Part shown: positions 8,755-31,767 of the stretch, in pieces
Layout: every line of letters starts with the position of its first letter
Numbering within the stretch: position 1 is the stretch's first letter
From: Candidatus Scalindua sp.
GTDB taxonomy: Bacteria; Planctomycetota; Brocadiia; Brocadiales; Scalinduaceae
Direction: 5' to 3'
Assembly: GCA_031316235.1 (NCBI GenBank)
Contig: JALDRA010000001.1
Span: 2,100,001 to 2,132,000 of the forward strand
Length of the DNA: 32,000 nt
The notes under the pieces: model-generated
Told to the model about the DNA's origin: nothing
What the model saw: the letters and a program-made list of their open reading frames with translations, nothing else
Databases searched by the model: none
Position numbers and translations under genes: made by a program

Positions 8755-8826
8755 TCACACAGATAATATTTTTAATAATTCTGTTTTTCGATAATACAAA
8801 ATCCGTGTCTAACTGTGTCCTTTTCT

Positions 8827-9210: not shown

Positions 9211-9216
9211 CTGTGG
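9199..9216 (-). repeat. Inverted repeat, right arm, containing the GxxExxY start codon
   Basis: See 8737-8754. Confidence 0.7.
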
Positions 9217-9612: not shown

Positions 9613-9638
9613 GTTAGGTTTAACCCCAGCATTCCTTT

Positions 9639-9941
9639 CTATATTGGTTCTTCTGATATCACATTTCGCTGGATCAGTATGGAATTAAACTGATCTCTGG
9701 TCATCGGGCAGTTAATCAGATCTGCCGCTTCCCTGTTGGTTTCCAATCGAAGCTGTTTACGCGTACACAAAAGAAGATCGCCTGCAATGTCTTTTGTCTT
9801 GCTTGAATGCGATATGTATGTATAAACCCCGGTTTCTCGACCTTCATATTCGTGATAGAAATAAATATGGTGACCGCTTGTTTCCTTTCTAAACCCCTTT
9901 TTAGGTAGGTTTTTTATGATGTCATTGCGTTTGACCTTCAT
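9639..9941 (-). CDS. HicA-like (YcfA-type) toxin with a C-terminal extension
   Basis: MKVKRNDIIKNLPKKGFRKETSGHHIYFYH...YISHSSKTKDIAGDLL..KQLRL resembles the HicA core. ATGA overlap with the upstream gene. Confidence 0.5.
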   Translation of the reverse strand: MKVKRNDIIKNLPKKGFRKETSGHHIYFYHEYEGRETGVYTYISHSSKTKDIAGDLLLCTRKQLRLETNREAADLINCPMTRDQFNSILIQRNVISEEPI

Positions 9942-10366
9942 TCATTGATCTTCTGAAAAAATTCCTCATAATACTGCTTCAGTCGTTGCGCATCACCAGT
10001 GACTTGCTCCCAATTCAGCTTTGTGTAATGTCTGTAAAAGTGGATTAATTGTTCACAAAAGGCCTTGATAGCGTTAATCCTGGTTTCTCCGGTAGTAAAA
10101 ATACCAAGATTTTCATTTTCGGCGAAAAAGAGGCTTTCTCCTTTTCGAACCTTAACAGAAACCGGTTTTAAAGAACGGATCACTACCATCGGCGAAGTAA
10201 ATCGCCAAAGTGGTGTATATGCAGCTGCGTGTTGCCGTACACTTTTATCAACATCTAATTCCCGGGCGGTCAGATCTCCTTCCAGAAATCTGGTATAACT
10301 TGAAGGAAAAGAGCTCTGTCGTTCTGCTTTTATTGCATAGCTTTCATCTAATTCAGTTTTTATCAT
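9938..10366 (-). CDS. HicB-like antitoxin-domain protein (no recognisable DNA-binding tail)
   Basis: ..VSVKVRKGESLFFAENENLGIFTTGETRINAIKAFCEQLIHFY resembles the HicB N-terminal fold signature. ATGA overlaps at both ends. Confidence 0.4.
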   Translation of the reverse strand: MIKTELDESYAIKAERQSSFPSSYTRFLEGDLTARELDVDKSVRQHAAAYTPLWRFTSPMVVIRSLKPVSVKVRKGESLFFAENENLGIFTTGETRINAIKAFCEQLIHFYRHYTKLNWEQVTGDAQRLKQYYEEFFQKINE

Positions 10367-11079
10367 ATAGTTTCGCCTTTTAGATATTGACGATACTCAT
10401 CAGTGATATAGTTCTCGAATAAGTTTCTGGCCTGATTATGTGCCTCATTTACTTTATCTCTTATGTTTGAAAATGTGAGTTCTTTAACATTTGCAAAATC
10501 AAAATCCAGTAGTATGGCCTCCTGCTGCTCATCCGAACGTGCTACAGATTCAATCTTCGTGGTGATGGTTCCGTTCGTAACTCTTGAAATAAACGTAAAG
10601 CTGAAATTCTCATATTTTTTCGATACTTCACCGGGTAAATTGAGGTCAAAATTAATAAACTGCTGAAGCGGGACTATGCTATCCTCACGTGTGAATGGAA
10701 TAGCGTTAATGTACCGCCATCCGAGGCGATTTACGAGTTTCAGCGTAAACGTTTCACCAAAAATCTTTGTGAGACGGATAAATTCTTTGATGAATGGTTT
10801 GTGACCTGAATATTCTTTTTCGTAATAGGAAAACCGGTTAATTGCCAGCATAATACCAGAATTTTGATCTTGATTCTCAAATCGATACGTAGGAAGTGCT
10901 CCGGCCAAAAGACCGTCCTTTTGCGGAACGAGAATATATGGATAATTATCCCTGATTTTGTCATAAAATTCATCTGTACGACATATTATGGACAATTCCT
11001 CTGGAAACCGGATCTCGCAAACCACCTCCACCAAGGGTGAATTGGGGTATACTTCTTTTATATCGTATTGTTTTGGCAT
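10363..11079 (-). CDS. TIGR04255-family uncharacterised protein
   Basis: N-terminus ..YPNSPLVEVVCEIRFPE.., then ..RLGWRYINAIPF.. and ..AILLDFDF.. as in TIGR04255 members. First gene of a three-gene translationally coupled set. Confidence 0.65.
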   Translation of the reverse strand: MPKQYDIKEVYPNSPLVEVVCEIRFPEELSIICRTDEFYDKIRDNYPYILVPQKDGLLAGALPTYRFENQDQNSGIMLAINRFSYYEKEYSGHKPFIKEFIRLTKIFGETFTLKLVNRLGWRYINAIPFTREDSIVPLQQFINFDLNLPGEVSKKYENFSFTFISRVTNGTITTKIESVARSDEQQEAILLDFDFANVKELTFSNIRDKVNEAHNQARNLFENYITDEYRQYLKGETI

Positions 11080-11120
11080 TTTTCCTCCTGAAAGAATTAC
11101 TGAATTGTATCAAATTTAGC

Positions 11121-11357
11121 CTAAAACCCCAATCCATTTTTCCTGGCCGGTACGTCGTCTATCAAGCGCTTTTCATCTGTTACAATAAAATGGAGAGCAG
11201 AAAGTGCATTGGCTAATCTCCAGAAAAGTGGATTGCGACCCACTGCTTCCTCAACCAAAAAGCGTTTCAGTGCTTCTCCGCGACCTGCTGCAAAGATAAT
11301 CATGCTCTGGTGAAGGTATCCCCGGACAAAAAGCGCCGAGGACTTAACTTGATTCAT
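11121..11357 (-). pseudogene. Probable C-terminal remnant of a DUF1156/COG1743-type (defence-associated methylase-like) protein
   Basis: ..LHQSMIIFAAGRGEALKRFLVEEAVGRNPLFWRLANALSALH..DEKRLIDDVPARKNGLGF* resembles from memory the tail of that family. Only 78 codons, and the ATG abuts repeat R3. Confidence 0.3.
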
Positions 11358-11363: not shown

Positions 11364-11400
11364 CCGGATTTTATCCTAAATCCATTATGAGATGAGTATA
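11364..11400 (+). repeat. R3 hairpin module (partial, degenerate stem)
   Basis: ccggattttatcctaaatccattatgagatgagtata. Confidence 0.65.
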
Positions 11401-11520
11401 AAAGAATCTACGTGATGAAATCAAAATAGAAAAATTATAGTTTTGAAAGTGGGGTTTTTTTTAACTAGTTTTACCCAGAAACATGTTTCTAAATCATTAT
11501 GCGGGATTATTTGTCAATAG
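11400..11520 (+). repeat. R2 repeat, copy 2 (palindrome AGAAACATGTTTCT at 11477-11490)
   Basis: See 9492-9612. Confidence 0.85.
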
Positions 11521-11720
11521 AATAGGTGACCAAAATATACCCCAATTATTTGCAATATCATTGTCGGGGGAGCTATCGGGAATAAGTTTCCCTGAGCTTG
11601 CAGAAAGATATAAAATAGCAACTTATAAGACGATAACATCAATGAAAGAAAATGGAGAGAGCAGCATAAAGAAAAAAACAATATGCAAGGCTAATGCAGT
11701 CAAGGGGAGATTTGATCCCA
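11521..11720 (+). repeat. R1 repeat, copy C (5'-truncated core, no tail)
   Basis: aataggtgaccaaaatat...cagtcaaggggagatttgatccca. Carries a 1-nt indel relative to copies A/D (aatgaaagaaaatg versus aaatgaaagaaaag). Confidence 0.85.
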
Positions 11721-13373: not shown

Positions 13374-13423
13374 ACTAAAACCGATTTGGTTTTCGGTATT
13401 ACCTGAAACCAGATCTTGGTGAA

Positions 13424-13902
13424 GGTATACTCGCTCAATTTGATCTCGGATTTTATCCGAAAACAATCATGAGATGAGTATATCATATGATAAATCGAGG
13501 AACAAACCCTGATAGAATCTTTTGCAAAGAGGAATGTTATTCTCAACAGAAGAATATGAGATATTTTTAATATCGGTGAAAGTGTATTGTGTCAAACCAG
13601 AATAGGTGACCAAAATATACCCCAATTATTTGCAATATCATTGTCGGGGGAGCTATCGGGATTAAGTTTCCCTGAGCTTGCAGAAAGATATAAAATAGCA
13701 ACTTATAAGACGATAACATCAAATGAAAGAAAAGGTAGGGAGTAGCATAAAGAAAAAAACAATATGCAAAGCTAATGCAGTCAAGGGGAAATTTGACCCC
13801 AAAACCTCACTTTGTACAATCTCCTTTTTATGGGAAATTATATAATGTGTATACGATGTTATGAAACACACAAGCTAATCACTAATCAAGGTTTGACCCC
13901 AA
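13424..13902 (+). repeat. Composite repeat copy D: R3 (13424-13482, stem-loop TCGGATTTTATCCGA 13446-13460), linker, R1 core (13540-13800), tail-A (13801-13902)
   Basis: The linker + core match 30583-30899. Tail-A matches 2850-2966 and 18646-18742. Confidence 0.85.
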
Positions 13903-16729: not shown

Positions 16730-18136
16730 TTAAACAGGAGACCATTTAGAATACCCGTTGTTACGTATTATCCCCTTGATTCTTAATGCAGAGAGCAAGT
16801 TAGTAACTTTGTTTTTCTTCTGAGATTCAGTTAATATGTCTGGCAATTTATCCCGAAGGAACTTCTCAATGTTTTTTCTTGGTGATTCCCCAAACTTTTT
16901 TAGATATTCAACGATGAGATTTTTATAGTGCTCATCATCAAGCCCTCTCTGCTTAATATAATACGCCTTTAATTCATCATTGGACAGCGATGCAGTAATT
17001 TTGGCGGAGATAACGTAATTGGGTTTTCTCCCCTCTATTAAACCAAGCCCTTTCAGATATTTGATCTCTTCATCAGGAAGAGGTTTCTGCTTTTGTACCT
17101 TATCTAACATGATAATTTGCTCTAGAGACAAACTCGGATTTCGTGCGAGTACACGCGCAAAATCCATATCGAGTACCTTGCCAATTACTGTTACTTTTAC
17201 TTTATCTTCTGACAAGTCATATTCCGGCATTGGAAAAAATCTTTCACGCTGATAATTAAACATCTTCCTTATGCCACCGCCTGCGGTGTCAACCATTTTT
17301 AAATTAAACATTGCGGTTGCAAGAAACCTATTGCGGTAATATTCTTCTGGTGCATCTTCTTTAACTACCTTCTCCACTGAGCCGGGAATGAAGCTGCCGA
17401 GATTAGTAAATATCAATTGGTCTTCCATTTCAACAACATTAATGCGGCCGCCTTTTGTGTAATCCTGGTGTGCAATGCAATTGTTTATAGCTTCACGGAT
17501 TACAAACGGTTCGTATTGGTCAACCTCATCAGGGAATAAAGTGCCGTCTTTGATATAGCGATATTTCAGATTGCGGATTTTTGCATATATCTTATCAACG
17601 GCCAACAGTAAAGGACAACTCTCAATGTGATAGTCCCTGTTATTTCCTTTAGCATCTTTCAAGAGCCAGCGTATCTTTGCCTCTGCCGGGCTAACAAAAT
17701 GTTCCGGATTCAATGGCGATAGTTTTTCTCCTTCCCTTCCATAGTAGTGTCCATCAAAGGCAACGGGTATACCTTTTGGAGCAGCAGGAATGTGAAACAT
17801 AACTATACGACCTTCGGGTAGATACAGTTCATAGATTTCAATAAAAGAAATACGATTGGTGGTTTTATTGGCTAACTCCCCTTTAAGGTTGTCAAGATCC
17901 TTACGGTTATGGCGGAACTGGCTGCCAACTATTGTTCTTCCCTTATCCTTAATCCCGAAAATAAGCCATGCGTGAGATTTGCCTTTGAGGTTTGCCTCAT
18001 TTGAAAGAGCAGAAAAATATTTGCCCAGCTTATTAGAGTCATAATTATTCCTGGCCTCTTTAAATTCAAAGACCTCCGTTTCCGCAGGCAATCTGCGAAA
18101 TTCCTCCAATTTAATTAATAATTCTTTTTCCGTCAT
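16730..18136 (-). CDS. AlbA_2 (Schlafen-like DNA-binding) + HATPase_c_4 domain putative regulator (often annotated RecG-like)
   Basis: ETEVFEFKEARNNYD..KYFSALSNEANLKG..AWLIFGI (AlbA_2). REAINNCIAHQDY..GGRINVVEMEDQLIFTNLGSF (ATPase-like). C-terminal wHTH-like tail. Confidence 0.8.
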   Translation of the reverse strand: MTEKELLIKLEEFRRLPAETEVFEFKEARNNYDSNKLGKYFSALSNEANLKGKSHAWLIFGIKDKGRTIVGSQFRHNRKDLDNLKGELANKTTNRISFIEIYELYLPEGRIVMFHIPAAPKGIPVAFDGHYYGREGEKLSPLNPEHFVSPAEAKIRWLLKDAKGNNRDYHIESCPLLLAVDKIYAKIRNLKYRYIKDGTLFPDEVDQYEPFVIREAINNCIAHQDYTKGGRINVVEMEDQLIFTNLGSFIPGSVEKVVKEDAPEEYYRNRFLATAMFNLKMVDTAGGGIRKMFNYQRERFFPMPEYDLSEDKVKVTVIGKVLDMDFARVLARNPSLSLEQIIMLDKVQKQKPLPDEEIKYLKGLGLIEGRKPNYVISAKITASLSNDELKAYYIKQRGLDDEHYKNLIVEYLKKFGESPRKNIEKFLRDKLPDILTESQKKNKVTNLLSALRIKGIIRNNGYSKWSPV

Positions 18137-18175
18137 GCGTTAATAGTACCTCTATCTCTCCTGTTACGGTTTCAC

Positions 18176-18310
18176 TCATTCATCCTCATCCTCAGCCTCA
18201 GCCTCACCCTCTCCAAACAGAGCCTTTTGTCCACCTGTCTGTTCGTCAAAGGCGCATCTGCCACGCCTGCGGCAGATGCGATATTTGATGCCTGGCTTGA
18301 ACCTAGCAGA
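18176..18310 (-). pseudogene. C-terminal gene remnant paralogous to 1351-1518
   Basis: ..FKPGIKYRICRRRGRCAFDEQTGGQKALFGEGEAEAEDEDE*. The ICRRRGRCA segment is encoded by the perfect hairpin at 18253-18280. Confidence 0.3.
18253..18280. repeat. Perfect 10-bp stem / 8-nt loop hairpin CGCATCTGCC-acgcctgc-GGCAGATGCG
   Basis: Read directly. Embedded in the gene remnant, with no convincing T-tract. Confidence 0.6.
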
Positions 18311-18572
18311 ATGGGTGCATTGTGATCCTAAATAACAGTCGCTGTTCCTATTGTCCCTCTCTATTCAGAATTTGCAAAATACGCTTAACGTGATGATTCA
18401 TTACTGAGATTTTTAAAGTCACTTACCCAGAGATATTTCAGTTTCATCTATCTACCCTTTGATATAAAGCTCAATACTGCATCCAGTAATTTACTTGAAC
18501 ATTCTATTTTTTAACGGTACATCATTTTTATTTTTAGTACAGGATCTCTTTTAAATATCCATATATTTCCTT

Positions 18573-18742
18573 AATCACTGATCAAGGTTTGACGTCATTT
18601 TTCGTGCAAGGCTAATGCAGTCAAGAGGAGATTTGATCCCAATACCTCACTTTGTACAATCTCCTTTTTATGGGAAATTATATAATGTGTATACGATGTT
18701 ATGGAACACACCAACTAATCACAAATCAAGGTTTGACCCCAA
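18573..18742 (+). repeat. R1 copy E (3' core fragment 18606-18645 + tail-A), bracketed by direct repeats aatcac..atcaaggtttgac (18573-18594 and 18716-18737)
   Basis: gcaaggctaatgcagtcaagaggagatttgatccc + ..cctcactttgtacaatctcctttttatgggaaattatataatgtgtatacgatgtt.. Confidence 0.8.
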
Positions 18743-18794
18743 GTGTCTCCAAGAACCAATTGTTTTGTGTTGGTTTATATTTCCCCTGAAGTCT

Positions 18795-21700
18795 TCAGGT
18801 AGGCTGAATGGATTCATTTAATTTGTTTGTCTTTAAAATTATTTTAAACATTTTCTTAATGTATGTGGCTTCGTCTTCCTGAAACAATACATTATGCTTC
18901 TCGACATCTTCCTTATTAAGCTTTTTATCCCACCATTTTATTTGATAATGCTCTGTAACAGAGATAATGAATGAATTCAAAATAACATCTTTGTCACCAA
19001 TCTGGCCTTCAAGAGTTTTAATCTCTTTATGAAAACGCATTTTAGGATCATCGAGGCCTTTTGCATGACGAATACCATGAGGATCGATAAATGTAATGAA
19101 TTGTGTTCCGCCATAAACTACCCACATGATAAAGTCCGGATAAAAATTATGAGCCTGAAAGAAACCGACTCCTCTGCCTCTACCCAGATTCCGGAGTAAA
19201 TACATCTCCTTATCTTTAAAATAATCAATATTGTCCTCATAGTGTTTCTTCAAGTCGGCAACAAATTGATTCTCTCCCTTATTCAAGGCAACCGGTATCA
19301 CCTTTATTTCGCTATCTTTTATGTAAATCATGGGTTTATACAGGTGTCGGTCGAAAGAGAATGAGTGTAAAGATCCGAACTCAAAATTACTGAAATCCTG
19401 GTTTTCTATCTTTTGTTTCAGCTCTGTAAGTTTGGTAATAATATCCTCCCGAGACTTTTCAACCGTAAAGGTATACTCATCAAAAAGATTACCCTTCTTT
19501 TCCTGAGCTGACAAAGCTGTTTCAACTTCATGAATATACTTATATTCAATCTTATCTTTCTCATAATCTAATTTTTTCACATTGTAATACTGATCACAAT
19601 ATTTCTTCAGTAAGACAACGGCTATATCCTGCCATAATTGAACCTGTTCGAATGATTTAAGTTCAAGTTCTTCCTCTGGAATATATAGGATATACCAGTC
19701 AGTTCTCGCCAACAAGGCAGGAAGAATATTCTTATCAATATTCAAATTATAATAACAGCGTTCATTCTTGTATTTCTGTAATTCAAAATAGATCTCTTCA
19801 ACATCCATAAAAGCAAGATGTACACTCTTTAATTCTCCTTCGTTAAATGTTGCCACTGCAGTGGAACGGGCCATCCTGCTTTGCAGGGCTTCTATCTTCG
19901 GGTACCAGTCAACGAGAACCGGATGTTCAAGCATGTAGTCATCAGGCTCTCCCAGCGTTGGCCGTTCACCCTGTTTCTTGAAATTAACTCCCTCTTTAAG
20001 CTGAGGATATTTAAGTTTGGTTTTCCCCAGATTAGAAATAGCCGGTATCGCAATCTCTTCGTATTCATCTGCTCCTTTAACCCCTTCATCCTCCAGATAT
20101 TCTCTGAATTGACGCATATAATCCGCCTTGACGCCAAACACATGAAGCGTCTCAACTATGCCGATGTTCTTGGGAATGTTAACACTCTTCAAATATTTGC
20201 TTCGTTTCAGGCTCATATCGTATCCCTTCAAGCGCACACCTCTTCCAAACAACTGAATAATTTCAGACCCTTCCGTTTTACCCACATTCATAAGACCCAT
20301 TGTGCTTACGCGCCAGCTGTTCCAGCCTTCCGTGAATTTCTTTGATCCTATCAGGATTTTTACCGGAGAACTCTTTTCAGAGAGCCGATGGAAAAGCGAA
20401 TCAGAAAAATCTTTGCTTGAAGCAATGAGACCATTCTGTTCACAAAGGTTTATCAGATCACGGTCATCTCCGACATTGATAACGCCGAAATGCTCATTGT
20501 CTCCAAGTCTCAGGCCTATCTCTCCCTGCGCTCCTTTCAGATTGTCTAAATGCATATGTGCCTCAACAGTAGTACAATTAAAGACCTGTTTCCTGATATC
20601 AGTGTATAAGTCATTCGCTTCCATTCTCTTGGAGATTAAATATATGAATTTTCCGGCAAAAAGGTCATTTCCTCTGGTGTCATTCAGCTGAGATGTCCCA
20701 CTGAGTAATCTCTCAATATATTCAATTGATTCCTGCGTATTCCTTAAAAAACTGTCCAGAAACAGAAGGATGTCTACCACATCGGAAACCTTGCTGCCCT
20801 GTTCAGTGCGAACTGCGTTTACCCTGCTGCCGACAAAAATCCAGAGCGGCTCTTCCAGTAAAAACGGAGAAAATGCCCTTTCGTTTTCATGAAACAATAA
20901 AAGCTGCTGGTAGAAACTCAAGAGACATGCAGTTAAGTAAAGCTGTTTCTGCTCTTCATGACGATTTTCTGCAAGATTTAATATTGAATACTCTTTTCCG
21001 TATCCGTCCCGGTAGAAATATTTATACGAATAGTCAAACAGGATGCACTTTGCATACTGCTGAAGCATCTCTTTTTTACCGGATGCCTTCATGGCCTGAC
21101 CGAATGTCGCCGAATACTCAAAGGAAAAGCCATCCTCACACAGGCGATTGCGTTTATCCATCCACTCTATCCCGCCGGCACCTCGATGGCCTTCATCAAC
21201 AAGCACCAGATTTTTCCCCTCAAAACAATCCACGCTGACTGTCTTCTCTTTTGACTCTTCCTTTAATTTATGGATATCAATAATCTCAATTTCGTTACTA
21301 ATAAACAGCCCCAAAGCGTCTTTTTTGAAAAGATCAGCCGTGAAACCTGATAACAGAAATTCTTTTCAATGCTGTTCTGAAAGCCCCTCGTTGGGAGTTA
21401 AAAGGATTGTCCTGTTTACCTTTTTCTTTAAACCATATCTCTTTTGATAATGCTGATACTGAAGTATGTTTATGTGCATGATCAATGTTTTACCTGATCC
21501 CGTCGCCTGCCAGAAGGCTATCTTGTTGAGCTCTTCAATTGCGTATGGCATAACCTGTTCACCTGGTTCTCTGTCTGTATTAAACTGCGTGACAAAATCA
21601 TTCAGCTCCGTGAGCAGGTTTTGCGGATTTCGAAAGTATCTGTCCAGATAAATCTCGCAGAAAAGGAGCGCCATATACTGAAAATACTTCCAGCGAAATC

Positions 21701-21989
21701 CTTCACGTTTCGAGCAAATACGCAGGGTGTGGCTAACGATATTCTGATCAAACTGTAGAAGGAGATCGTCAGGCAGGGCTTTACGTTCAAAGAGTTGGTT
21801 GGTCAGGTGTGTGTGAAAGTGGGAGACATTATTCTCATCGACACCCTCCAGATGCTGTGCTTTCATGCCATCGCACAAATTATCCAGTGACTCTACCTCA
21901 AAGAGAAAAAGGATATATTGGAAAAGCACGAGGGACTTTCCAAACTTGAAATCTGCCTGTCTCCGTCTGTTTTGTTGTCTTTTAGCCAT
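18795..21989 (-). pseudogene. Type III Res-like SF2 helicase with a C-terminal nuclease-like motif; one reading frame interrupted by a single in-frame TGA (21366-21368)
   Basis: ORFs 21366..21989 and 18795..21314 are in the same frame. Read-through gives ..LTPNEGLSEQH*KEFLLSGFTADLFKKDALGLFISNE.. Motifs: ATGSGKT, VLVDEGHRG, FTEGWNSWR, QLFGRGVRLKG, YPDFIMW..FIDPHG. Confidence 0.8.
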
Positions 21990-22160
21990 AGTATTTATAT
22001 AATTGATTGTATATCACTATATTTATAAGCCATATCCGCTTAGGTTACATATAGTTATAATTTTTGTCTCACTAAATATACACAAACATGTTTGCGTCTC
22101 ATTAGCAGTCTTAAATGAGACACAAAATGTATTTTTGTTTCATCAGTTAGATGCTAAACG

Positions 22161-23255
22161 TTATTCCACAATTTCGAGTAACTTATTAAAAATATATATG
22201 CTGGCTTTTCTTCCGCCTCCTTTACGCAAAACCGAAATTACGCCTTCTTTTTCAAGCAATTTCATAAAACGCATCGCACTTGCCTTAGGAATGCCCGAGC
22301 TATGGATAAAGTCACTGGCGCTAAAGACTGGCCTGGCAAAAAGTGTGTCGATGATATTAATAACATATTGAGACCTTGTAATAGTTTGCATACGCTCTTT
22401 CTTCTTTTCATATAATTCCAATATTTCTCTCGCCTTTTTACTGTTTGTTTTTGCCTGTTCAACGATAGAGCGTAAAAAGAACTCTATCCACTCTTCCCAT
22501 TTCTTATTTTGAGTAATAGCTTTTAGTCTCTCATAATATTCATCTCTATTGGCCTCAAGGTATTCACTTATATAAAACATCGGAGTACTGAGCACCCTTT
22601 TTTCGTATAGTAATAATGGAATCAATATCCTTCCAACCCTTCCGTTTCCATCTACAAAGGGGTGAATTATTTCAAATTGAGCGTGAACAACGGCAAGCTG
22701 GACTAGCGTATCCTTTTCATCAAAATGTATATACTTCTCAAAATTAGATAAGTACTCCATTAAGCGCATTGGCTCTGGTGGAACGTAATAAGCTTGTTCC
22801 ACAGGCGTTCCCGGTTTACCAATCCAGTTTTGAACACTCCTAAATCTACCCCTTCCCTTATCTTTACCCCTAACACTATCTAAAAGTTGGCCGTGTATCT
22901 CTTTTATCAAATTTAATGTGATTGGCTTTTTCATAAGCCAGTCAAGCGCCATATCAATAGCCTTGCGATAATTTATTATTTCCTGGATATCCTTTTCTTT
23001 TTCAGTCTGTATCACAGCTTGAGCAGAAGCTTCGAATTCAAGAACCTCTACAAGGCTAGCCTGTGTCCCTTCAATGCGTGAAGAAAGAACTGCCTCATTA
23101 GTAGTAAGGGGTGATAAGAGCACACGTGGATTGATAATTCCCTGTAAAATACCATCATAACGAGCTAACTCAGCATTCGCCTTTCCTATAAGAGTTATAA
23201 ATCTTACCCAATCAATGTCTTGTAGTGGTAATGTATCCGGAATAAATGGTTTCAT
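22161..23255 (-). CDS. fic: Fic-domain protein (AMPylase-type) with N-terminal inhibitory motif and C-terminal wHTH
   Basis: HPFVDGNGRVGR (HxFx[DE]GNGRxxR). SSRIEGT matches [ST]xxxE[GN]. C-terminal ..GIPKASAMRFMKLLEKEGVISVLRKG. Confidence 0.9.
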   Translation of the reverse strand: MKPFIPDTLPLQDIDWVRFITLIGKANAELARYDGILQGIINPRVLLSPLTTNEAVLSSRIEGTQASLVEVLEFEASAQAVIQTEKEKDIQEIINYRKAIDMALDWLMKKPITLNLIKEIHGQLLDSVRGKDKGRGRFRSVQNWIGKPGTPVEQAYYVPPEPMRLMEYLSNFEKYIHFDEKDTLVQLAVVHAQFEIIHPFVDGNGRVGRILIPLLLYEKRVLSTPMFYISEYLEANRDEYYERLKAITQNKKWEEWIEFFLRSIVEQAKTNSKKAREILELYEKKKERMQTITRSQYVINIIDTLFARPVFSASDFIHSSGIPKASAMRFMKLLEKEGVISVLRKGGGRKASIYIFNKLLEIVE

Positions 23256-23283
23256 TTTTTCTTTTTTCAGATTCTATAGGGAG

Positions 23284-26200
23284 TTAAATTTCCTTAACAT
23301 CAAACATCCGTTTCTTAAACTCTTCTTCTATGAGAGAGACCTTCCATCTGTCCTCATCAACCTTCAGGTTTTCAAGATTGTTGTCTCCATTAACAAATAT
23401 CTTATCAAATTCAAAATCCTGAGTATTATAACCCTGCTTGGTAAAAAAGGTATCCAGTTCCTCATTTGTCTTTTCTTTCGTATTTCTCCAAATTACGAGT
23501 GTCTTTTCTCCTGTGCGCAATTTACCACGAATCACCTTGAATCCCCGAATAACTTCTGTCTGCTCAACATAAAGGCCGACCAGGTAATTAAAGGTTTCTA
23601 TCAGGTCTATTTTTTTTGTCTTCAGCTCATTCTCATCGCGAATCTTGAGGGTATAATGAAAAGGGTCTTCAAACCTGTCAATATTGAGCAGGCTGTCGCT
23701 TTCCCGAGTCTCTATATCCAGCATATATCCAATCACATAATCTTCTTTTGCGGCCTTACTCATATCAAGTACCATCTGCTGCTTTTCATCCCGATTAAGA
23801 ATAAGATTATCGAGTGTATCTTCGTAGCTTTCAAGTTTCATGTATTTGAACATGTGGCTAACGCCCTCACGGGAAACCGGTTTGCCGTTTTTCCAGTCTT
23901 TGGAATAGACTACCTTTTGTATACGTGGTTTGAGAACCGTATCAAAATACTGCCCCATCTCAACGAGGATATATTTACGATTACCATTGTCTTCACGGTT
24001 AAGGTTTATAACGGCATGGGCAGTGGTGCCGGAGCCGGCAAAGTAATCGATAAATAATGTATAAAGTCCATAGCTTATGGATTGCAAGCAATCTTCAACA
24101 GCATGTAAGCTTTTAGGAAAAGAAAAATCTCTTTGCCCTATTCCAAAAATATCATTTAACAATTCTGAGCCATAAGTACTTGCATCAAGTTTTTTTCCTG
24201 TCCAAACTGATTTTCGTAGCTTTTGTTTTCCCTCTTGATGATAGTGTATTTGAATAGCTCCTTTAATTATTTTTGCCCATACACTACCTTCCTCTGCATC
24301 TTGAATTACTCTCTCTCTCCCATAATACCACCTTCTCTCTACATTATTATCATCAATTGGCCAAATCATTTCTGTTCTTGGATTTTTATGTTTAGGGATA
24401 TCATCCTCCAATGCCAAAGGTTCAGTTGTCCCAACTATCTTCAGTGTTTGTTTGTCTACTTCGATTCCATAAAACTGCTTAGGTGATGAGCTTCTAGTAG
24501 AATCTGTTCCTGTCCTCCTCAAGTTTCTTCTTATGTCATTTGACTTTTCCTTTTTACGAGTAATTAAATCCTTATCTCTTTTAATTGCCCACAACGCATA
24601 TTCATGAGTAATAGCAAAATTACTTTTTACTCTACCTCTATGATTATACTCAATAATAACTGGTCTTATCTCATATTCTGTCATCACCTGTTCAATAATT
24701 TTTGTTAAATTACTTAATTCACAATCATCAATTGTTGCACATAAAATACCATTTTTATTTAATAGCGACTTACCTTTGTCAATTCGATCATAAATCAAGC
24801 AATTCCAACTGCTATCTTTATACCCATTTTTATAAACAATCTCTGTGGCATCAGTATTGTATGGAGGATCAATATAAACCCCATACACTTTCTCCTGATA
24901 TTTTTCTCGCAACAAATTCAACGCTTGAAAATTCTCTGAATTAATTATCAATCCATCACACGCTTCATCAACATTATCAAAACTTGCCAGCAGTTTTTCC
25001 TTAAACTCATCACTGAAGAATTTCGTATCGAGAACCAGATAGTGATTGGCTTCCAGAAAGTTCCTGGTAAGCGGTTCTGAGTATGCGGGTTTCATTAAAT
25101 CTCCCTCAATCTCATGAATGGCAAACAGCCTTACCCACTCCTCACGCTGGGCGTCATTTTTTACTATCTCCTCATACAGCCCTGCCGGCACACGGTCTAA
25201 CGTAACACAATATCCGCAATCAACCACAAACTTCTTCTTGAGCCACATCTTCTTCTGAAACTCCTCAATCTGTGCCAGAAATGTTATGATCTTCCGGGCA
25301 ATATGCTTAAGAACCTTGACCTTCCCGATAGACCGCATCACCTTTTTCTCATCCTGTTCATCAAGGTCATCAATAAAGAGGACTTCATTCTTGATATAGA
25401 AATCCAGTTCGCGCCGCATGAAACCGCCGAGATCTTTGTGGATAAAGAAGTCAAAATTGAACCGGGCGGTGTAGTCGTTCAAATGCTTTTCGAAAAGTGT
25501 TCGCTTTGGATTCTTTGGAGTCGACTTTTTTATAAACAGATCCTGATAGCCCTCCTTTACAAGATATCCATCTCTAGAATCAACATATTCCACTGTCTTT
25601 TTATTCAGATCCGTCTGTTTTGCCTTATCAGGTTGATACGTAAACTGAATATACAAATCGTTTTCTTCAATCTTAATCGGTTCTTCCTCATAGAGTTTAA
25701 ACTTTCGTTCTTTCCCCTGTTCCTGTTTAACATTATCCTTCTCTTCAGTCGCGTCAACAAGCTTGAAATGCACCCGTTTGTCACCATCAATCTTAAATGC
25801 ATAATCCCTCAGATATTCAGATGATTTTATGTAGTATTGATCAGCGTTCGCCCAATGGAGCTTAACCTCTTCTCCCTCGTAGGGTATTGCATAGGTATCT
25901 TTCTTATAACGCCGGAGGCTTAAGAAGTCGCCGTCATCATAGTAACGTCTGAAAAAGGTAGTCAGATGTGAGAAGACCTCATTTACAAGCGCCTCCTCAT
26001 TGCCATATGTTCCAAGCTCTTCACGCAATTCTCTTACTTTAGGCGAATCATCAGGATTCAGTCCGCTTTCCTTGACTGTCTTTTCCAAACGGGCTAACTC
26101 CTTCTGCTTTTCCCCTGCATCGACGCTTTTGTATTTTGAGAATTCTTCTTTCACCTGAGGCAGAAGTTCTTTATCGAGAAAGTGCTCTATTTCATCCCTC

Positions 26201-26301
26201 TTCTGATTCATGATACGATAGATGCCAAAATCAAGATCAGCCTGGTCCATCTGAAACATCTGCCGTAAAATCTTTTTCAATTTTTCATATTGTGTTTCCA
26301 T
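23284..26301 (-). CDS. Beta-class N6-adenine (N6_N4 type, type III Mod-like) DNA methyltransferase with a ~460-aa N-terminal extension
   Basis: VYIDPPYNT (motif IV) precedes DYFAGSGTTAHAV (motif I) by about 260 aa. N-terminal LDFGIYRIMN and FIHKDLGGFMRRELDFYIKNE regions have unknown function. Confidence 0.9.
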   Translation of the reverse strand: METQYEKLKKILRQMFQMDQADLDFGIYRIMNQKRDEIEHFLDKELLPQVKEEFSKYKSVDAGEKQKELARLEKTVKESGLNPDDSPKVRELREELGTYGNEEALVNEVFSHLTTFFRRYYDDGDFLSLRRYKKDTYAIPYEGEEVKLHWANADQYYIKSSEYLRDYAFKIDGDKRVHFKLVDATEEKDNVKQEQGKERKFKLYEEEPIKIEENDLYIQFTYQPDKAKQTDLNKKTVEYVDSRDGYLVKEGYQDLFIKKSTPKNPKRTLFEKHLNDYTARFNFDFFIHKDLGGFMRRELDFYIKNEVLFIDDLDEQDEKKVMRSIGKVKVLKHIARKIITFLAQIEEFQKKMWLKKKFVVDCGYCVTLDRVPAGLYEEIVKNDAQREEWVRLFAIHEIEGDLMKPAYSEPLTRNFLEANHYLVLDTKFFSDEFKEKLLASFDNVDEACDGLIINSENFQALNLLREKYQEKVYGVYIDPPYNTDATEIVYKNGYKDSSWNCLIYDRIDKGKSLLNKNGILCATIDDCELSNLTKIIEQVMTEYEIRPVIIEYNHRGRVKSNFAITHEYALWAIKRDKDLITRKKEKSNDIRRNLRRTGTDSTRSSSPKQFYGIEVDKQTLKIVGTTEPLALEDDIPKHKNPRTEMIWPIDDNNVERRWYYGRERVIQDAEEGSVWAKIIKGAIQIHYHQEGKQKLRKSVWTGKKLDASTYGSELLNDIFGIGQRDFSFPKSLHAVEDCLQSISYGLYTLFIDYFAGSGTTAHAVINLNREDNGNRKYILVEMGQYFDTVLKPRIQKVVYSKDWKNGKPVSREGVSHMFKYMKLESYEDTLDNLILNRDEKQQMVLDMSKAAKEDYVIGYMLDIETRESDSLLNIDRFEDPFHYTLKIRDENELKTKKIDLIETFNYLVGLYVEQTEVIRGFKVIRGKLRTGEKTLVIWRNTKEKTNEELDTFFTKQGYNTQDFEFDKIFVNGDNNLENLKVDEDRWKVSLIEEEFKKRMFDVKEI

Positions 26302-26322
26302 ATGTTTATTGTCTCTCTTGTG

Positions 26323-29192
26323 TTAAACAACCTTCCATCGTATCATAAATAATGTTTCGGTATCAGTTTTCTGCTCCATCTTTTTCTTGAGCGTGTCAAT
26401 CAGTATATCACGTTTTTCTTCTATTTCATCCTCTACATCAAAGATTCGCTGTCGCTGCCTGCGTTGAATTTTTTCTGTTTCCCTGATCTTTACCTCAACG
26501 TCATGCTTCTCCTGCAGGGATGTCGATTGGCGCAACTCTCGGTTCAAAGCACGGAGTCTGTTCTTGGTATCCTTTAATTCCTTTTCGGCAGATGAGATCA
26601 GGTCATCTGTCCAGCGAAACAGGCGATCGCATTCATCATGATAATAGGAATTGTTCCGTTCCATTGTCTTATCGATCGTAGCGTCAATATGACATTGAGC
26701 GTCATCTCGCAATCTCTTCTGTATTTCATCCGGCAAACTAACATCTCTTTGAGTAGTGGCGCCACAATCAAACAATTTCTCGCAAATTTCAGGATGAATT
26801 ACAGCGCCTGTATCATCGAAAGCATTAAAAAGTAAATATTCGTCCTGCCCGAAACTCTTAATCATGAGTTTAGATAGTATCAAATACCCTGATTTTCGCT
26901 TGAGTGACTCAACGACAGATATCTTAACAGGATGGCTGCTGATATCAAAGACTAGTTCTGCATAAGGGGTATTGCATCTTCTCGATTCTGACAATACATA
27001 CTCCCCAAGAGGATGAGACATGCGATATAAATATATACTTTCAACATTTTCTTTTCTTTTTGATATTAAATGATAGTTGCCGGTGCGGATTGTATTGCCA
27101 GGTGGTTCCTTAAGATAAAACGATAACTCTTCACAATGGAATTCTGCTCTCTTCTCCAAGACATGTTCCGTAATCTTCCAGAATCTCAGCTCCATCTTAT
27201 CAAGTAAATCCTGTGTTTGGTCCAAATGCAGTTTAAGACGTTCGTGTACATCCTCATCAAAATGTTCAAGGAGAATCTGTTTGCTTTCCTTAATCTTTGA
27301 TTGAATCTGTTCGTCCATTTTCTGTTGTAATTCTGAAAAGGCGCTCTGAATCTCCTGTGGTTTGCGGCATTGCCGGTAGATTCGTAACACCTCCTTCTCA
27401 AAATCGACACCTGATTCGAGCGAACCAAGTACTTCATCAGATGCACCAAAGACACCACTGAACAGTTTAAATTTATATACCAAAAGATCATATACCTGTC
27501 GGTCAACGTCATTGCGTTCATTTAAGAAATTAATCACGACAACATCATATTTTTGTCCGTAGCGGTGACATCTTCCTATTCGCTGTTCTATACGTTGCGG
27601 GTTCCATGGCAGATCATAATTGATAACCAGTGAACAGAATTGCAGATTTATTCCCTCTGCAGCAGCTTCAGTTGCGATAAGAATATCCGATGTATCTCTA
27701 AAATGCTCCAGGATGGCAATACGTTTATCCGAGCTCTTCGATCCACTGATACGACCGGTGTCTCTGTTGTGCTCAAGCCAGTTTTCATATATTTTTTTAG
27801 ACTCCTGGTCTGTATTTGTTCCGTTAAACGTAACAACTCTTCCTGCATAGCCGTTGGCATCCAGATAGTCCTTTAAGTATTGTTGTGTCCGACGTGATTC
27901 GGTAAATACAACAGCTTTTTTCTTTGCCCCCATTTTCTCCGCTTCCGCAAAACCGCGTTCAATGCCGTCTCTGAGCTTTTTTGTTTTTGAGTCGACTTTG
28001 ATAACCTTTGCGTCTTCAATAAATTTTTCCAGCAATTCAATTTCGTGATCAATCTTTTCCTTATCAATTTTACCTCCATCCTGATCTTCTGTTTTATCTT
28101 CCTCCTCTTTCATGGCTATTCCCAGTTCTTCCATCTCCTCATCATCCAGGGATTCATCATCAACCAACTGATCAACGATGTTTTCTTCTACCGGTTGTTC
28201 ATCACTTAACTTCTCTAAACGTCTTTTTATTGTTTCCAATGTTGCTATGAGAGCATAGGATGATGATGCCAGTATTTTTCTCATCACCAAGGTAATAAGA
28301 GATTTCTGGCTTGTTGGTATGGCGTAGGTATCAGGCTGTTGGAGAAATGCTGTTATGCCCTGATATAATTTTATCTCTCGATCGGTCTGTGCGAAGTGAA
28401 TGGTTATTGCTTTGCGATTAGTATAGGGGATATATTGTAACACCTGCTGGCGCAGTGTGCGTTTACAAAAACCTTTTAAACGAGTCTTAAGGCTTTCTAA
28501 GTCGGCATCATTAACATATAATTGACGAAAACTTCTGCTATCTCCAAAGAGATAATCGTCTATAATTGTGGATAAACCAAAAGCTCCATTAACGAATTCT
28601 GTAGTGGGGTTGCTGTCAAAAGTATCTTCTTTGTGTCTTCCAGAACCCACTTAATCGATTGTCCGAGTACATTTGATCTGCGGTATGCGTTTCTCAGCTT
28701 ATGAGCTTCATCAATAATTGCTAAGTCCCAGGGGATTAATTTTGTTGTTTCTTTCTTACTATGTATGAACTGATATGAACAGATAACAACTTTATCCTGG
28801 GTAAATGGGTTATCATAACCATCATTATTGAACTGATTATACGTCCTAGACTCAAGAATCACGGAAGGTATATTAAATTTTTCTTCAAGCTCTATGCTCC
28901 ATTGCTTTCTTATCGATGCCGGACAAACAACGAGTAATTTTCGCTTACGTTCTGCCCAATACTGGCAAAGCGCTATAGATGCTTCGATTGTTTTACCCAA
29001 ACCAACCTCATCAGCCAGGACAACACCTTTTGACAAAGGAGACTTTAAGGCGAAAAGAGCTGCTTCTATTTGATGGGGATTCAAGTCAACCGCAGCATCA
29101 AAAAGGGAACGAGATATCTTCTCAATCCCATCTTCAGTGGATGATTTCAGCAAGTCGTGTGCATAATATTTAGCATGATAATCGGTAATCAT
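26323..29192 (-). pseudogene. SNF2-family helicase with a long C-terminal extension; split by a 1-nt frameshift near 28579-28582
   Basis: The N-terminal ORF ends ..LTATPLQNSLMELLVYPQL*. The second ORF contains ..AFGLSTIIDDYLFGD.. One extra T in the cttttgg run would give ..SLMELFGLSTIIDD.. Motifs: DEVGLGKT, IIDEAHKLRN, LTATPLQNS, QRIGRCHRYGQ. Confidence 0.8.
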
Positions 29193-29334
29193 TGAGTTAT
29201 AAAGACAGAATTTTTATATCCTATTATTTTATGATATTTCTTTGCCATTAAATTGTATACCGATTATCATGGTATGATAATTTGGAAGATTTTATTGTAA
29301 GGCGTTTATCTGTAAAAGTTTCCATCTTAATAAA

Positions 29335-29490
29335 TCAAGAAGATCCTTTACGAGAGTTATGATATCGACATAAAACTTGTCCATTAAAAATAGCAGTGGG
29401 CCCACCCTTAGTATGTGGTATTATATGGTCTGCTTCATATTCATTCCAACCTACCGTTGCCTCTTTTTCATTTTTTTCTTCTTGCATCAT
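29335..29490 (-). pseudogene. 51-codon HNH nuclease core mini-ORF, probably a truncated gene
   Basis: MMQEEKNEKEATVGWNEYEADHIIPHTKGGPTAIFNGQVLCRYHNSRKGSS*: DH..N..HN core present, upstream CxxC absent. The ATG lies 3 nt from the RAYT left inverted repeat. Confidence 0.45.
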
Positions 29491-29492: not shown

Positions 29493-29505
29493 GGGTCAAG
29501 TCTGC
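29493..29505. repeat. RAYT-flanking inverted repeat, left arm GGGTCAAGTCTGC (overlaps the RAYT stop codon)
   Basis: Perfect reverse complement of 30514-30526. Confidence 0.8.
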
Positions 29506-30476
29506 CGATAGCTTAACTGTAAATCTCTTTTTATATTATCTACATGTTTTTTCAGTTTTTTGTTACTTATGAGATTTGACTTTACACTTTCAATTATACT
29601 GCTTACGCTACTATATTTAACAACCTTAAACTCTTTGCCTATTTCCTTTAAAGAATCGCGCCGCATATATCGTGTTAAGTAAATCGCTATATTTCTTGGC
29701 TCATTAACTGCTCCCCGACGGATACCATATAATTGAGACATTTTGACTTTGTATTCTTTACAAACGGCAAGTATTATTTTTTCCTTGTCTGGGGCCAACA
29801 GCTTCGTCTCTGGAATTTCTTCTTTAAATAGAAAGGCTGAATATTTCTCTTTTACCCAGTTTATAAATTCCTCAGTTCCCAGTATAGAAGGAGAGTTCTT
29901 CTTTTTAAATACATTAACTATCTCTTCTGGATCTTCCTCATTCATAAATTCCTTATATTCTTTCAAACGTTTTGATTTATCATGAGTCAATAATTCAAAG
30001 AAACTTTCCTTGTCTAACCAATTCCATTGAGAGGATTTTGACAGATATCCTTTATGACTGCTCCAGGCATAATCCTCTAATCGGCTAACTATTCCAGCCC
30101 GTAGAGGATTGTGGTGAATATACCTTACCAAAACGGTAAGATAATTTTCACTGTCTAATAAAATAGATTTATATCTTCCTCTGAATAATTGTCCATCATG
30201 CCTATTCCTACGATTGTATCTCTGAGTATAAACACCATTTATGTGCCTCATGCACCGTGAAAGATTCCCTTCGGGTGTCTGGACTAAAAGATGGTAATGA
30301 TTAGACATTAAACAATATGCAACTATTTTAATATTCCATGCTGATACCGTTTCCTTTAATATCTCAATAAAGGCTATATAATCTTCTTTCTTTGGGAATA
30401 TGGTTTCACGGCGACGCCCTCTATTCATTACATGATAGTACGCACCCGAGTATTGTATTCTGAGCGGTCTTGACAT
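29496..30476 (-). CDS. REP-associated tyrosine transposase-like (RAYT / IS200-like Y1) protein with a C-terminal DnaA-C-like HTH domain
   Basis: YHVMNRG, AYCLMSNHYHLLV (HUH), VRYIHHNPLRAG..YAWSS (catalytic Tyr region). C-terminal ..RGAVNEPRNIAIYLTRYMRRDSLKEIGKEF.. is like DnaA domain IV. Confidence 0.85.
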   Translation of the reverse strand: MSRPLRIQYSGAYYHVMNRGRRRETIFPKKEDYIAFIEILKETVSAWNIKIVAYCLMSNHYHLLVQTPEGNLSRCMRHINGVYTQRYNRRNRHDGQLFRGRYKSILLDSENYLTVLVRYIHHNPLRAGIVSRLEDYAWSSHKGYLSKSSQWNWLDKESFFELLTHDKSKRLKEYKEFMNEEDPEEIVNVFKKKNSPSILGTEEFINWVKEKYSAFLFKEEIPETKLLAPDKEKIILAVCKEYKVKMSQLYGIRRGAVNEPRNIAIYLTRYMRRDSLKEIGKEFKVVKYSSVSSIIESVKSNLISNKKLKKHVDNIKRDLQLSYRQT

Positions 30477-30513
30477 TGCAACAATATAACACCATCAAGT
30501 AGTATAGTCAATA

Positions 30514-30526
30514 GCAGACTTGACCC
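30514..30526. repeat. RAYT-flanking inverted repeat, right arm GCAGACTTGACCC
   Basis: See 29493-29505. Part of the hairpin GTCAA-tagcagac-TTGAC (30507-30524). Confidence 0.8.
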
Positions 30527-30544
30527 CTTTACCGACCCCTTTAC

Positions 30545-31153
30545 CCGGATTTTATCCGAAAACAATCATGAGATGAGTATATCATGTGATGAATCGAGGA
30601 ACAAACCCTGATAGAATCTTTTGCAAAGAGGAAGGTTATTCTCAACAGAAGAATATGAGATATTTTTAATATCGGTGAAAGTGTATTGTGTCAAACCAAA
30701 AGAGGTAACCAAAATATACCCCAATTATTTGCAATATCATTGTCTGGGGAGCTATCGGGATTAAGTTTCCCTGGGCTTGCAGAAAGAAATAAAATAGCAA
30801 CTTATAAGACTGTAACATCAAATGAAAGAAAAGGTAGAGAGTAGCATAAAGAAAAAAACAATATGCAAGGCTTATGCAGTCAAGAGGAGGATTGACCCCA
30901 AACTCACTATAATAATCATTACACACCAGATGTTTTCCAGCAGTTGTTAACAGTCCCTTCGCAGTTTACACTCAAGAATTTAATCAGAGCTCCTTGATGA
31001 AATAATTATGATGCAAATTGATATCTATTAGATGGATTGTAATATCAAGGTCGTGTGTTAGCTCTATAATCAGCTGCCGGGATATACCGAATGGCTAATA
31101 TATTACGTTCTTTGTTTTTAGCATGTAGCCATGTATGGACTTGACCCCTTTAC
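30545..31153 (+). repeat. Composite repeat copy F: R3 (30545-30582), linker, R1 core (30639-30899), R4 (30900-31153); bracketed by the 16-bp direct repeat gacttgacccctttac (30517-30532 and 31138-31153)
   Basis: Matches copy D (R3-linker-core) and copy B (core 3' end + R4). Confidence 0.85.
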
Positions 31154-31173
31154 TTTATTCTCTGTAGTAACCA

Positions 31174-31767
31174 TCATCTACAAGAGCAGATGGTTTTTTT
31201 TGACCCCAGCAAATTATCTTGTGTAATATCTGGAAAGTCATCTACATAAGAGAATCTAGTGAAACGGTGACTAGCTGGTTTAGGTATTATAATTGGAATT
31301 GATAATTGTTCTACATTTGTCACCTTGCACTTAACCCTGATCCATTTTTTCCTAAATCCATCCCGGACTTCTTCTAAGGCTGCATCATAATTTTCAAAAG
31401 AATTACATGCGACTAATAATTCATTAGCCCTTCTATCAAAAAGTTTCTTATCTTCAAAGTAATTGATTATTGACGAATATTCATCTTCAGTTATTAATTC
31501 GGCATCATGATGAATACCAATGATTATAGATTCCTTAGTTTCTGGATGTATTGAAAAAAATCCTATACTAAATTTTCCATTATTATCATTTAGCTTCTTA
31601 GTTTGTGGTGTTTTATATGTATAAGGGAATATATATCCATTATATTCATCGGATAACTGAAAATTCCACTCTTCGTGTCCAAATCCTTTCTCACCTGGAA
31701 AGCCCCCCTCATATGTTGAACCAGACGGTAATTTCCATCCCCTTGTATTCCAACATATCCTTTGCAT
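31174..31767 (-). CDS. Hypothetical protein with an N-terminal CWN..W..PSG / GFGHEEW module (a module recalled as the N-terminal domain of some HNH endonucleases)
   Basis: MQRICWNTRGWKLPSGSTYEGGFPGEKGFGHEEWNF... 197 aa from the ATG at 31767; the ORF track starts at 31779. Confidence 0.55.
   Translation of the reverse strand: MQRICWNTRGWKLPSGSTYEGGFPGEKGFGHEEWNFQLSDEYNGYIFPYTYKTPQTKKLNDNNGKFSIGFFSIHPETKESIIIGIHHDAELITEDEYSSIINYFEDKKLFDRRANELLVACNSFENYDAALEEVRDGFRKKWIRVKCKVTNVEQLSIPIIIPKPASHRFTRFSYVDDFPDITQDNLLGSKKTICSCR

Follow-up and report, generated by a model that had tools for sequence, protein, structure and literature searches.

At the right-hand side of a 32,000-nucleotide stretch of DNA from Candidatus Scalindua sp. 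(GenBank assembly GCA_031316235.1, contig JALDRA010000001.1, positions 2,100,001 to 2,132,000 of the forward strand; hereafter the window) lies an intact element of 1035 bp, which encodes a transposase-like protein on the minus strand and is bounded by terminal inverted repeats (TIRs). The rest of the window holds several repeat modules, here called R1, R4, tail-A and D5 (Table 1). The 8-nt motif TTGACCCC (GGGGTCAA on the other strand) recurs at the junctions of these modules, and it had been taken, in an original prediction made from the letters of the window, for a degenerate recognition or recombination site resembling repetitive extragenic palindromes (REPs), with the neighbouring enzyme, likened to REP-associated tyrosine transposases (RAYTs), as its candidate partner. 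The motif is present at every coordinate listed there, within 1-2 nt. Here we describe what this motif is likely to be, on the evidence of the intact element, of its relatives in other genomes and of the modules themselves.

The protein combines an N-terminal Y1/HUH domain (Pfam Y1_Tnp, 9.5e-17) with a C-terminal helix-turn-helix (HTH) that resembles domain IV of the replication initiator DnaA (Bac_DnaA_C, 3.7e-12, residues 232-296). It passes the NCBIfam model REP_Tyr_transpos with 85.3 bits against a cut-off of 80, and its sequence matches in the PDB are to DnaA only, in that same C-terminal domain IV (8btg, 1j1v). Residues H60-Y61-H62, forming the HUH motif, and Y119, lying in RYIH-NP, do not vary when the protein is aligned with 12 homologues (53-82% identity), so that the copy in the window looks functional. 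A protein of Candidatus Scalindua sp. on a 4.15-Mb contig is 100% identical to it (over 95% of the query); the contig bearing the gene in the assembly collection is 7.6 kb long and stops 192 nt from the gene. Among the 120 best homologues, 61 end in S[QHY]x[QR]T, most commonly in SQEQT, and this ending, together with the stop codon, is in relatives the translation of the 3' TIR AGTCAAGAGCAGACTTGA. Only 9 of 72,556 plasmid records contain a relative, in each case a distant one (<40% identity).

Genes of this kind have been recognized before. RAYT-like genes flanked by long TIRs, not by REPs, were named TIRYT, and the units that they form TIRtrons (Di Nocera 2013, BMC Genomics 14:522, PMC3733652); according to the passages of that paper devoted to them, the TIRs overlap the gene ends, some share the sequence GGGGWSAS, and they make up "moderately abundant families of TIRs" whose members are single, dimeric or clustered. 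Most TIRYTs were later placed in subclass 2.1 of the TnpA-Y1 proteins, where subclass 2.1.2 is described as carrying a Bac_DnaA_C-like domain (Quentin 2018, BMC Genomics 19:475, PMC6006769). The Bac_DnaA_C extension of the protein in the window is a likeness to subclass 2.1.2 as it is characterized there, a placement made by domain content.

The two ends of the intact element, GGGTCAAGTCTGC (29493-29505) and GCAGACTTGACCCC (30514-30527), are inverted copies of each other. The site originally reported as GTCAA-N8-TTGACCCC is the 5' TIR of this element, and its partner at the 3' end had been overlooked because only three G stand there. By consensus and at promoter spacing, a -35 box of sigma-70 type can be recognised in the inner arm of the 5' TIR. 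The ATG of the TIRYT gene lies 6 nt past the -10 box, and this short distance suggests a leaderless mRNA. The same layout, TTGACT-N17-TATAAT-N7-ATG, is found in relatives from other genomes (loci L047, L057, L068 and L026). A short HNH-like fragment adjoins the 3' end of the element.

Inside the window, TTGACCCC occurs 10 times, 9 of them on the plus strand, where dinucleotide shuffles predict 0.63 occurrences and none of 100 shuffles reaches 10; TTGAYCCC is likewise found 12 times (1.9 expected), and GTCAA-N8-TTGAC with at most one mismatch 8 times (1.4 expected). Most of these matches, however, sit within copies of a few larger repeats (R1, full or partial, six times; tail-A three times; R4 twice) and are therefore not independent events. 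Their enrichment is thus inflated, and the decisive evidence has to come from outside the window, where two independent lines are available.

The first line is a repeat dispersed among genomes. A scan of GTDB, with one genome per species and the R1 end CAGTCAAGNGGNNNNTTGAYCC as query, returned 98 loci, 46 of which contain between them 51 matches to a near-invariant 26-mer, ATGCAGTCAAGGGGAGATTTGACCCC; the hosts are many species of Scalindua and a few metagenome-assembled genomes (MAGs) assigned to other phyla. Across 50 instances in differing flanks the 26-mer is sharply bounded, with conservation running from ATG to CCCC and then giving way to a T-rich flank. These 50 external copies comprise 42 solo repeats, 5 in full-length pairs and 3 in inverted doublets of 82-100 bp. 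At about nine loci a TIRYT homologue (MARPLRIEYP...) begins, in reverse complement, in the DNA upstream of the 26-mer; in gene orientation the arrangement reads GGGGTCAAATCTCCCCTTGACTGCAT-N17-TATAAT-N7-ATG, and the 26-mer recurs inverted at the 3' end of the same genes, where the final codons, stop codon included, fall within it. Both inverted copies, spanning 1041-1043 nt, were seen at L047 and L071.

The second line comes from more distant relatives. A metagenome scan with the TIRYT family alignment gave 80 loci with homologues of 37-65% identity, and in 48 of these the inverted pair GGGGTCAARTCTNNNNTTGACT, that is GGGGTCAA...TTGAC, encloses the gene with a spacing that stays constant, the most frequent element length being 1035 bp; the other loci appear (untallied) to be mostly cut-off contigs or the most distant relatives, with no TIR found. 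Within this repeat the 12-nt tip GGGGTCAARTCT is invariant, and the variable 4 nt (NNNN) are identical on average at 3.5 of 4 positions between the two ends of one locus, as opposed to 1.55 of 4 between loci. The two ends thus evolve in concert, as transposon ends should if a single protein reads both. The MAG OFTM180 contains several copies with near-identical 5' regions and different flanks (L057, L068, L083 and L087), a pattern that argues for mobility. The flanks of the elements are biased towards A and T symmetrically, as AAA|GGGG...CCCC|TTT, and tend to be inverted rather than direct; a target-site duplication was looked for at the element flanks and none was found, nor was any fixed target sequence seen there beyond the A/T bias.

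On this evidence we consider it very probable that TTGACCCC is the outermost 8 nt of a 20-26-nt TIR belonging to an insertion sequence (IS)-like TIRtron of about 1035 bp. The proposed link with a RAYT-like enzyme holds to the extent that the motif is the conserved tip of a repeat flanking the Y1 gene both in the window and in the majority of its distant homologues, with dispersed copies in many Scalindua genomes; the class of site proposed with it was wrong. The features of the repeat might instead be thought to belong to a domesticated gene, as a promoter or operator at one end and C-terminal codons at the other, given that the TIRs share sequence with the -35 box and with the end of the coding region, stop codon included, and that HTHs of the DnaA_C type bind duplex DNA, making promoter autoregulation plausible. 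Against this, the 3' copy exactly inverts the 5' copy, including the non-coding GGGG and the 4 nt that vary in step within a locus, and a domesticated gene leaves unexplained the 42 solo 26-mers in unrelated contexts, the multiple copies per genome with differing flanks and the deleted derivatives that retain the end; we regard it as very improbable.

Two sets of observations touch on the distribution of the 26-mer. Mini-elements of 82-100 bp, which may be likened either to miniature inverted-repeat transposable elements (MITEs) or to REPINs, consist of two inverted 26-nt TIRs in the Planctomycetia MAG ERP125453_co2_192 (L039, L075 and L077), with a spacer of about 30 nt in L075. The unchanged Scalindua-type 26-mer is also present in a Nitrospinota MAG (L009, L069, L071 and L076) and in MAGs assigned to Omnitrophica (L048), Chloroflexia (L043), Anaerolineae (L061) and Vicingus (L081), owing either to recent horizontal transfer of the element or to mis-binned Scalindua contigs.

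Table 1. Coordinates of the intact element, its parts and the repeat modules in the window
Feature	Position	Strand	Details
Intact TIRtron	29493-30527	-	1035 bp: TIR, promoter, TIRYT gene, TIR; inverted ends; length equal to the family mode
3' TIR	29493-29505	-	aaGGGTCAAGTCTGC; stop codon TGA (29496-29498) within TTGACC
TIRYT gene	29496-30476	-	326 aa; Y1/HUH domain and C-terminal DnaA domain IV-like HTH (Pfam, NCBIfam and PDB matches)
Promoter-like site	30483-30511	-	TTGACT-17-TATATT with upstream TG; promoter scan; -35 box is the inner TIR arm
5' TIR	30502-30527	-	minus strand GGGGTCAAGTCTGCTATTGACTATAC, plus strand GTATAGTCAATAGCAGACTTGACCCC; fits the family consensus
Stutter	30522-30545	+	last 6 nt of TIR and 6 nt of flank (GACCCCTTTACC) in tandem
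R1 copy A, longest	13423-13800	+	5' part reaches left to ~13371 in comparison with L090, L020 and L026
R1 copy B, internally deleted relic	30546-30899	+	codons ~13-35 joined to ~225-end; TIR ATGCAGTCAAGAGGAGGATTGACCCC at 30874-30899
R1 copy C, mosaic	11364-11720	+	36-nt 5' piece, D5-like segment, R1 3' part with TIR
R1 copy D, 3' part	2589-2849	+	TIR ends TTGATCC; its 5' piece inverted at 2307-2366
R1 copy E, last 72 nt with TIR	7229-7300	+	starts directly after DruA stop codon
R1 copy F, last 36 nt with TIR	18605-18640	+	preceded by an end variant of tail-A type, 18583-18595
R4	30900-31148 (second copy 7301-7550)	+	ends in second 26-nt TIR variant ATGTAGCCATGTATGGACTTGACCCC, 31123-31148
Tail-A	13801-13900 (others 2850-2964, 18641-18740)	+	shortened TIR CACTAATCAAGGTTTGACCCC; holds GTGTATACGATGTT repeats
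D5	9491-9626	+	TIR-like end GTCAATAGGTTAGGTTTAACCCC; at synteny break with Scalindua SCAELEC01
Short further relic	31149-31207	+	ends CAAGAGCAGA-tggttttttt-TTGACCCC; resembles 3' TIR AGTCAAGAGCAGACTTGACCCC with insertion; by eye, weak
TTGACCCC-atctt-GTCAA	3038-3055	+	edge of GC-rich island; status uncertain, inner part of TIR unrecognisable

The module that most clearly connects the junctions to the element is R1. In a blastn comparison of copy B with intact Scalindua elements, positions 30580-30638 match nt 133-191 of the element at L054 (85% identity, E 1e-11), positions 30592-30899 match nt 751-1084 (70%, E 3e-47), and the remaining R1 copies give equivalent matches. The family profile hidden Markov model aligns to R1 at positions 13-35 and then 225-310 (225-306 for copy B), and in tblastn the segment YHVMNRG...IF.K.E.Y is joined straight to the HTH region. 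By these alignments R1 is an internally deleted TIRtron copy that has retained its 3' TIR, and the identical deletion in all copies indicates that it multiplied after the deletion had occurred. Its flanks differ both here and in Scalindua SCAELEC01 (L090, 96% identity), and the 5' extents of the copies are nested, from the full module through one shorter by 24 nt to the last 261, 72 and 36 nt. R1 is not a small protein gene, its frames being disrupted by stop codons and frameshifts. When R1 was examined as a MITE, the copies in the window were found to carry one TIR only and no target-site duplication was seen; it shares with the 82-100-bp doublets the status of a non-coding derivative of an autonomous element, the doublets differing in carrying both TIRs.

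The other modules are related to the element through their ends. The end variant of R4 occurs, as ATGTAGYCAAGWRTGGACTTGACCCC, six times in L028, a 1.9-kb contig of Scalindua SCAELEC01 in which the tail-A end is also conserved, and the shortened end variants of tail-A and D5 are likewise conserved in SCAELEC01. R4 and tail-A were also considered as deleted element copies, and this was rejected, as no significant protein or DNA similarity extends beyond their ends. The modules are either broken element copies or DNA of unknown origin ending in the same repeat. The site at 3038-3055 may match by chance or may be an end in an advanced state of decay. The tip of the TIR, TTGACC, could supply neighbouring genes with a -35 box, as do the ends of those IS elements that carry outward -35 boxes; as an outward -35 box leading out of R1, TTGACCCC was rejected, its spacing to TACAAT/TATAAT being inconsistent (16 nt in two tail-A copies, 10 nt before R4, lost in copy D).

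Several smaller repeats accompany these modules. Within tail-A the short repeat GTGTATACGATGTT(A/G)TG lies at 2872-2930, 13835-13865 and 18675-18705; it is also found in L026, in the opposite orientation, just past a TIRYT gene (125-304) truncated at codon 60, and may be another small mobile repeat. A 30-nt repeat containing GTATGGTGTCCCC occurs at 2976-3005, 7701-7730 and 8565-8594, and in L081 at about 690-760, directly after a 26-mer 5' TIR; its reverse complement, GGGGACAC, fits GGGGWSAS exactly, and the repeat may belong to a second element family, as its end or its 5' region. As to the related cores ATGGTGTCCCC of the original prediction, they are present at 2985, 7710 and 8574; the sites near 12708 and 14700 match with two mismatches only. 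An Rfam scan of the window returned nothing at the repeats, its only match being a group II intron at 1157-1310.

The association of the motif with junctions is real. The window holds six clusters of element ends, and the block 9639-11315, the only one of its kind in the fetched loci, is syntenic with positions 6114-7790 of L090 from SCAELEC01 at 94.6% identity. Synteny breaks at both ends of this block, each of which adjoins TIR-bearing modules, and in comparison with its orthologue a minus-strand gene is cut short at 11315. Such a placement, together with the shared orientation of the motif copies at module junctions, is what might be expected of a site-specific recombination site, of the integron attC or Xer/dif type, at which a recombinase encoded elsewhere joins cassettes. 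Yet none of the 20 larger open reading frames (ORFs) covered by a Pfam scan is a tyrosine or serine recombinase, the DNA between the motif clusters consists of ordinary genes of very unequal length and not of cassettes, the motif as read from the sequence does not fit the R''/R' boxes of attC (RYYYAAC/GTTRRRY), and R1, of all modules the best characterised, is itself a fragment of the element. We attach next to no probability to this explanation, and the idea of a dedicated site joining unrelated modules gives way to modules that are deleted element copies (R1) or that end in a TIR or shortened TIR (R4, tail-A and D5). The motif stands at junctions simply as the terminus of the element; compared with a dedicated joining site, it is simplest to suppose that ends of the element build up and recombine at these places.

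The interpretation as a strict REP or REPIN, in which a single-stranded hairpin GTCAA-N8-TTGAC with a cleavage tag is spread by a RAYT, deserves separate consideration. In its favour, the protein scores above the cut-off of the NCBIfam REP_Tyr_transpos model, the short repeats are dispersed in intergenic DNA, and one MAG contains REPIN-like inverted doublets of 82-100 bp. REPtrons of Escherichia coli and Pseudomonas likewise share with the present system a homologous Y1/HUH domain, dispersed short repeats that also flank the gene, and inverted doublets. REPs, however, are stable hairpins of 20-40 nt that are tagged with GTAG and specific to a species, whereas the repeat described here is a TIR with a weak and unmaintained palindrome, is near-identical across genomes and belongs to a protein with an extra HTH. 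No GTAG or CGTC tag is present, the stem of 5-7 bp folds at only -2 to -5 kcal/mol, and in homologues TTGAC changes to TTGGC, TTAAC, TTAGC or ATAAC while GTCAA stays constant, with no covariation to compensate. The conservation of TTGAC can be put down to its match with a -35 box, and the GTCAA/TTGAC palindrome is best read as a coincidence of the tip GGGGTCAARTCT with the -35-like TTGACT, mirrored at the 3' end. In addition, the sections of Quentin 2018 (PMC6006769) on subclass 2.1 report that REP-like sequences were not found beside its genes. A REP-like site, as originally proposed, is thus contradicted on several counts, and we judge the strict form of this interpretation to be very unlikely, if a little less so than a domesticated gene.

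A TIRtron end, by comparison, agrees with the published descriptions in three respects: the protein resembles RAYTs in its Y1/HUH domain and has an HTH at its C-terminus, long TIRs and not REPs lie on either side of the gene and overlap its ends, and the TIRs form a dispersed and moderately abundant family whose members are single, paired or clustered (here the solo copies, the short doublets and the arrays of L028). Literature searches on the motif strings matched only Di Nocera 2013. The passages on TIRtrons in the two papers do not describe a fixed architecture of 1035 bp across phyla or a -35 box and stop codon borne by the TIR, nor do they describe internally deleted derivatives or the stutter at element ends considered below; the solo 26-mers, the 82-100-bp inverted doublets, the head-to-tail end stacks and the stutter are possibly new details. 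Elements of the IS200/IS605 group (IS608, ISDra2), which move by 'peel and paste', share the Y1/HUH transposase, the small size and the lack of a clear target-site duplication, and differ in having no TIRs, in their distinct left and right subterminal hairpins and in inserting 3' of a fixed tetra- or pentanucleotide; none of these features was seen here.

Some points weigh against identifying the motif with the end of a transposable TIRtron. A recognisable 5' TIR is found in none of the R1 copies of the window, and R1 could have multiplied by segmental duplication or recombination instead of transposition. Inside R4 and tail-A no homology to the element could be detected, so that it is their ends only that mark them as relics. 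Our motif counts cover the 32-kb window of a genome of 4.15 Mb. The tip GGGGTCAA fits the GGGGWSAS of the published TIRtron passages at seven of eight positions, its last base being A and not S (C/G). Finally, no assays of TIRYT binding, cleavage or transposition were found in the literature searched, and binding and cleavage in vitro are listed as future work in the pertinent passage of Di Nocera 2013.

If the motif is the end of such an element, the events that shaped the window can be outlined. The TIRYT protein would recognise the invariant tip, probably as a duplex through its HTH, and its HUH/tyrosine centre would nick the DNA at or near that tip. This nicking activity would have moved full elements, of which decay, deletion and recombination could then have left relics and stacks of ends, and junctions would appear marked by the motif in that each module either consists of an element terminus or closes with one.

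A further peculiarity of the ends may bear on how they are processed. Just outside the intact element the unit GACCCCTTTACC is exactly doubled (30522-30533 and 30534-30545), as had been noted in the original prediction, and this arrangement, which we call a stutter, is not confined to the window. In general a unit made up of 4-8 nt of the TIR end and 3-8 nt of flank stands two to four times in tandem; the period varies from 7 to 20 nt, lies mostly between 10 and 15 nt and has its mode at 12. Of the element ends compared, 10 of 50 from GTDB and 20 of 88 from the metagenomes show it, or about 20%, against 6 of 1000 and 6 of 2000 random positions in the same loci (0.3-0.6%); further examples are L015, L017, L054, L071-L073, L079, L082, L104, L116, L119, L129, L136, L137, L144, L149 and L163. 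The stutter arises locally, since the duplicated flank varies among loci. It is too variable in period for a classical target-site duplication, and its unit borders, as checked in the example from the window, lack the microhomology that slippage would call for. Speculatively, and by analogy, it might result from staggered or repeated HUH nicking followed by re-ligation, or from an overshoot like that of rolling-circle Rep proteins. A more specific proposal, which we put forward only tentatively and think rather doubtful, is that the HUH enzyme, guided by its HTH to the 5'-GGGGTCAA tip, nicks one strand there and, without letting go of that end, transfers or copies DNA with variable termination, a mechanism other than the 'peel and paste' of IS200/IS605. 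Nicking by an attached enzyme would explain the nested R1 truncations, the head-to-tail stacks of ends and the 10-15-nt stutter alike; were it true, the stutter would show where the enzyme cuts in an IS family with a wide distribution among uncultured anaerobes.

The surroundings of the modules are varied. At the left of the window (12-1310) lies a group II intron, in which an ORF for a reverse transcriptase/maturase (RVT_1 and GIIM) is followed by the intron match already mentioned (Rfam Intron_gpII). A GC-rich island at 3000-5312 (54-57% G+C as against about 37% around it), which has a cluster of TIR-type ends on its left border and contains a minus-strand ORF of 713 aa without a Pfam match, is probably foreign DNA. 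The segment 6153-7300 holds a lone homologue of the Druantia protein DruA, where the last 72 nt of R1 start right after the stop codon and the junction, GGGGTGAT, is similar to the TIR tip. Inverted repeats of 30 nt, AACCACAGATGGACACTGATTCACACAGAT, at 8735-8764 and 9189-9218 span most of a PD-(D/E)XK_3 nuclease gene, one lying just downstream of the gene and the other within its 5' end. From 16730 to 29490 runs a series of defence-type genes, wholly on the minus strand, comprising Schlafen/AlbA_2, an ORF of 839 aa of unknown function, Fic, an N6/N4 methyltransferase of 1005 aa and an SNF2 helicase in two ORFs (26323-28650 and 28560-29192).

Our findings remove an apparent mystery, in that the motif at the junctions would simply mark where a transposon ends, and the window would be a graveyard in which the remains of a single element family lie among defence-type genes. 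With more than 7,400 homologues of the TIRYT protein at E <= 1e-10, and more than 500 relatives in one metagenome scan, TIRtrons are common. For the annotation of such genomes, the identification explains both the assembly breaks at these sites and the mislabelling of TIRYT genes as "DnaA". The 1035-bp architecture, the 12-nt tip, the matching ends, the deletion derivatives, the doublets and the stutter together offer substrates and predictions for the biochemistry of the family.

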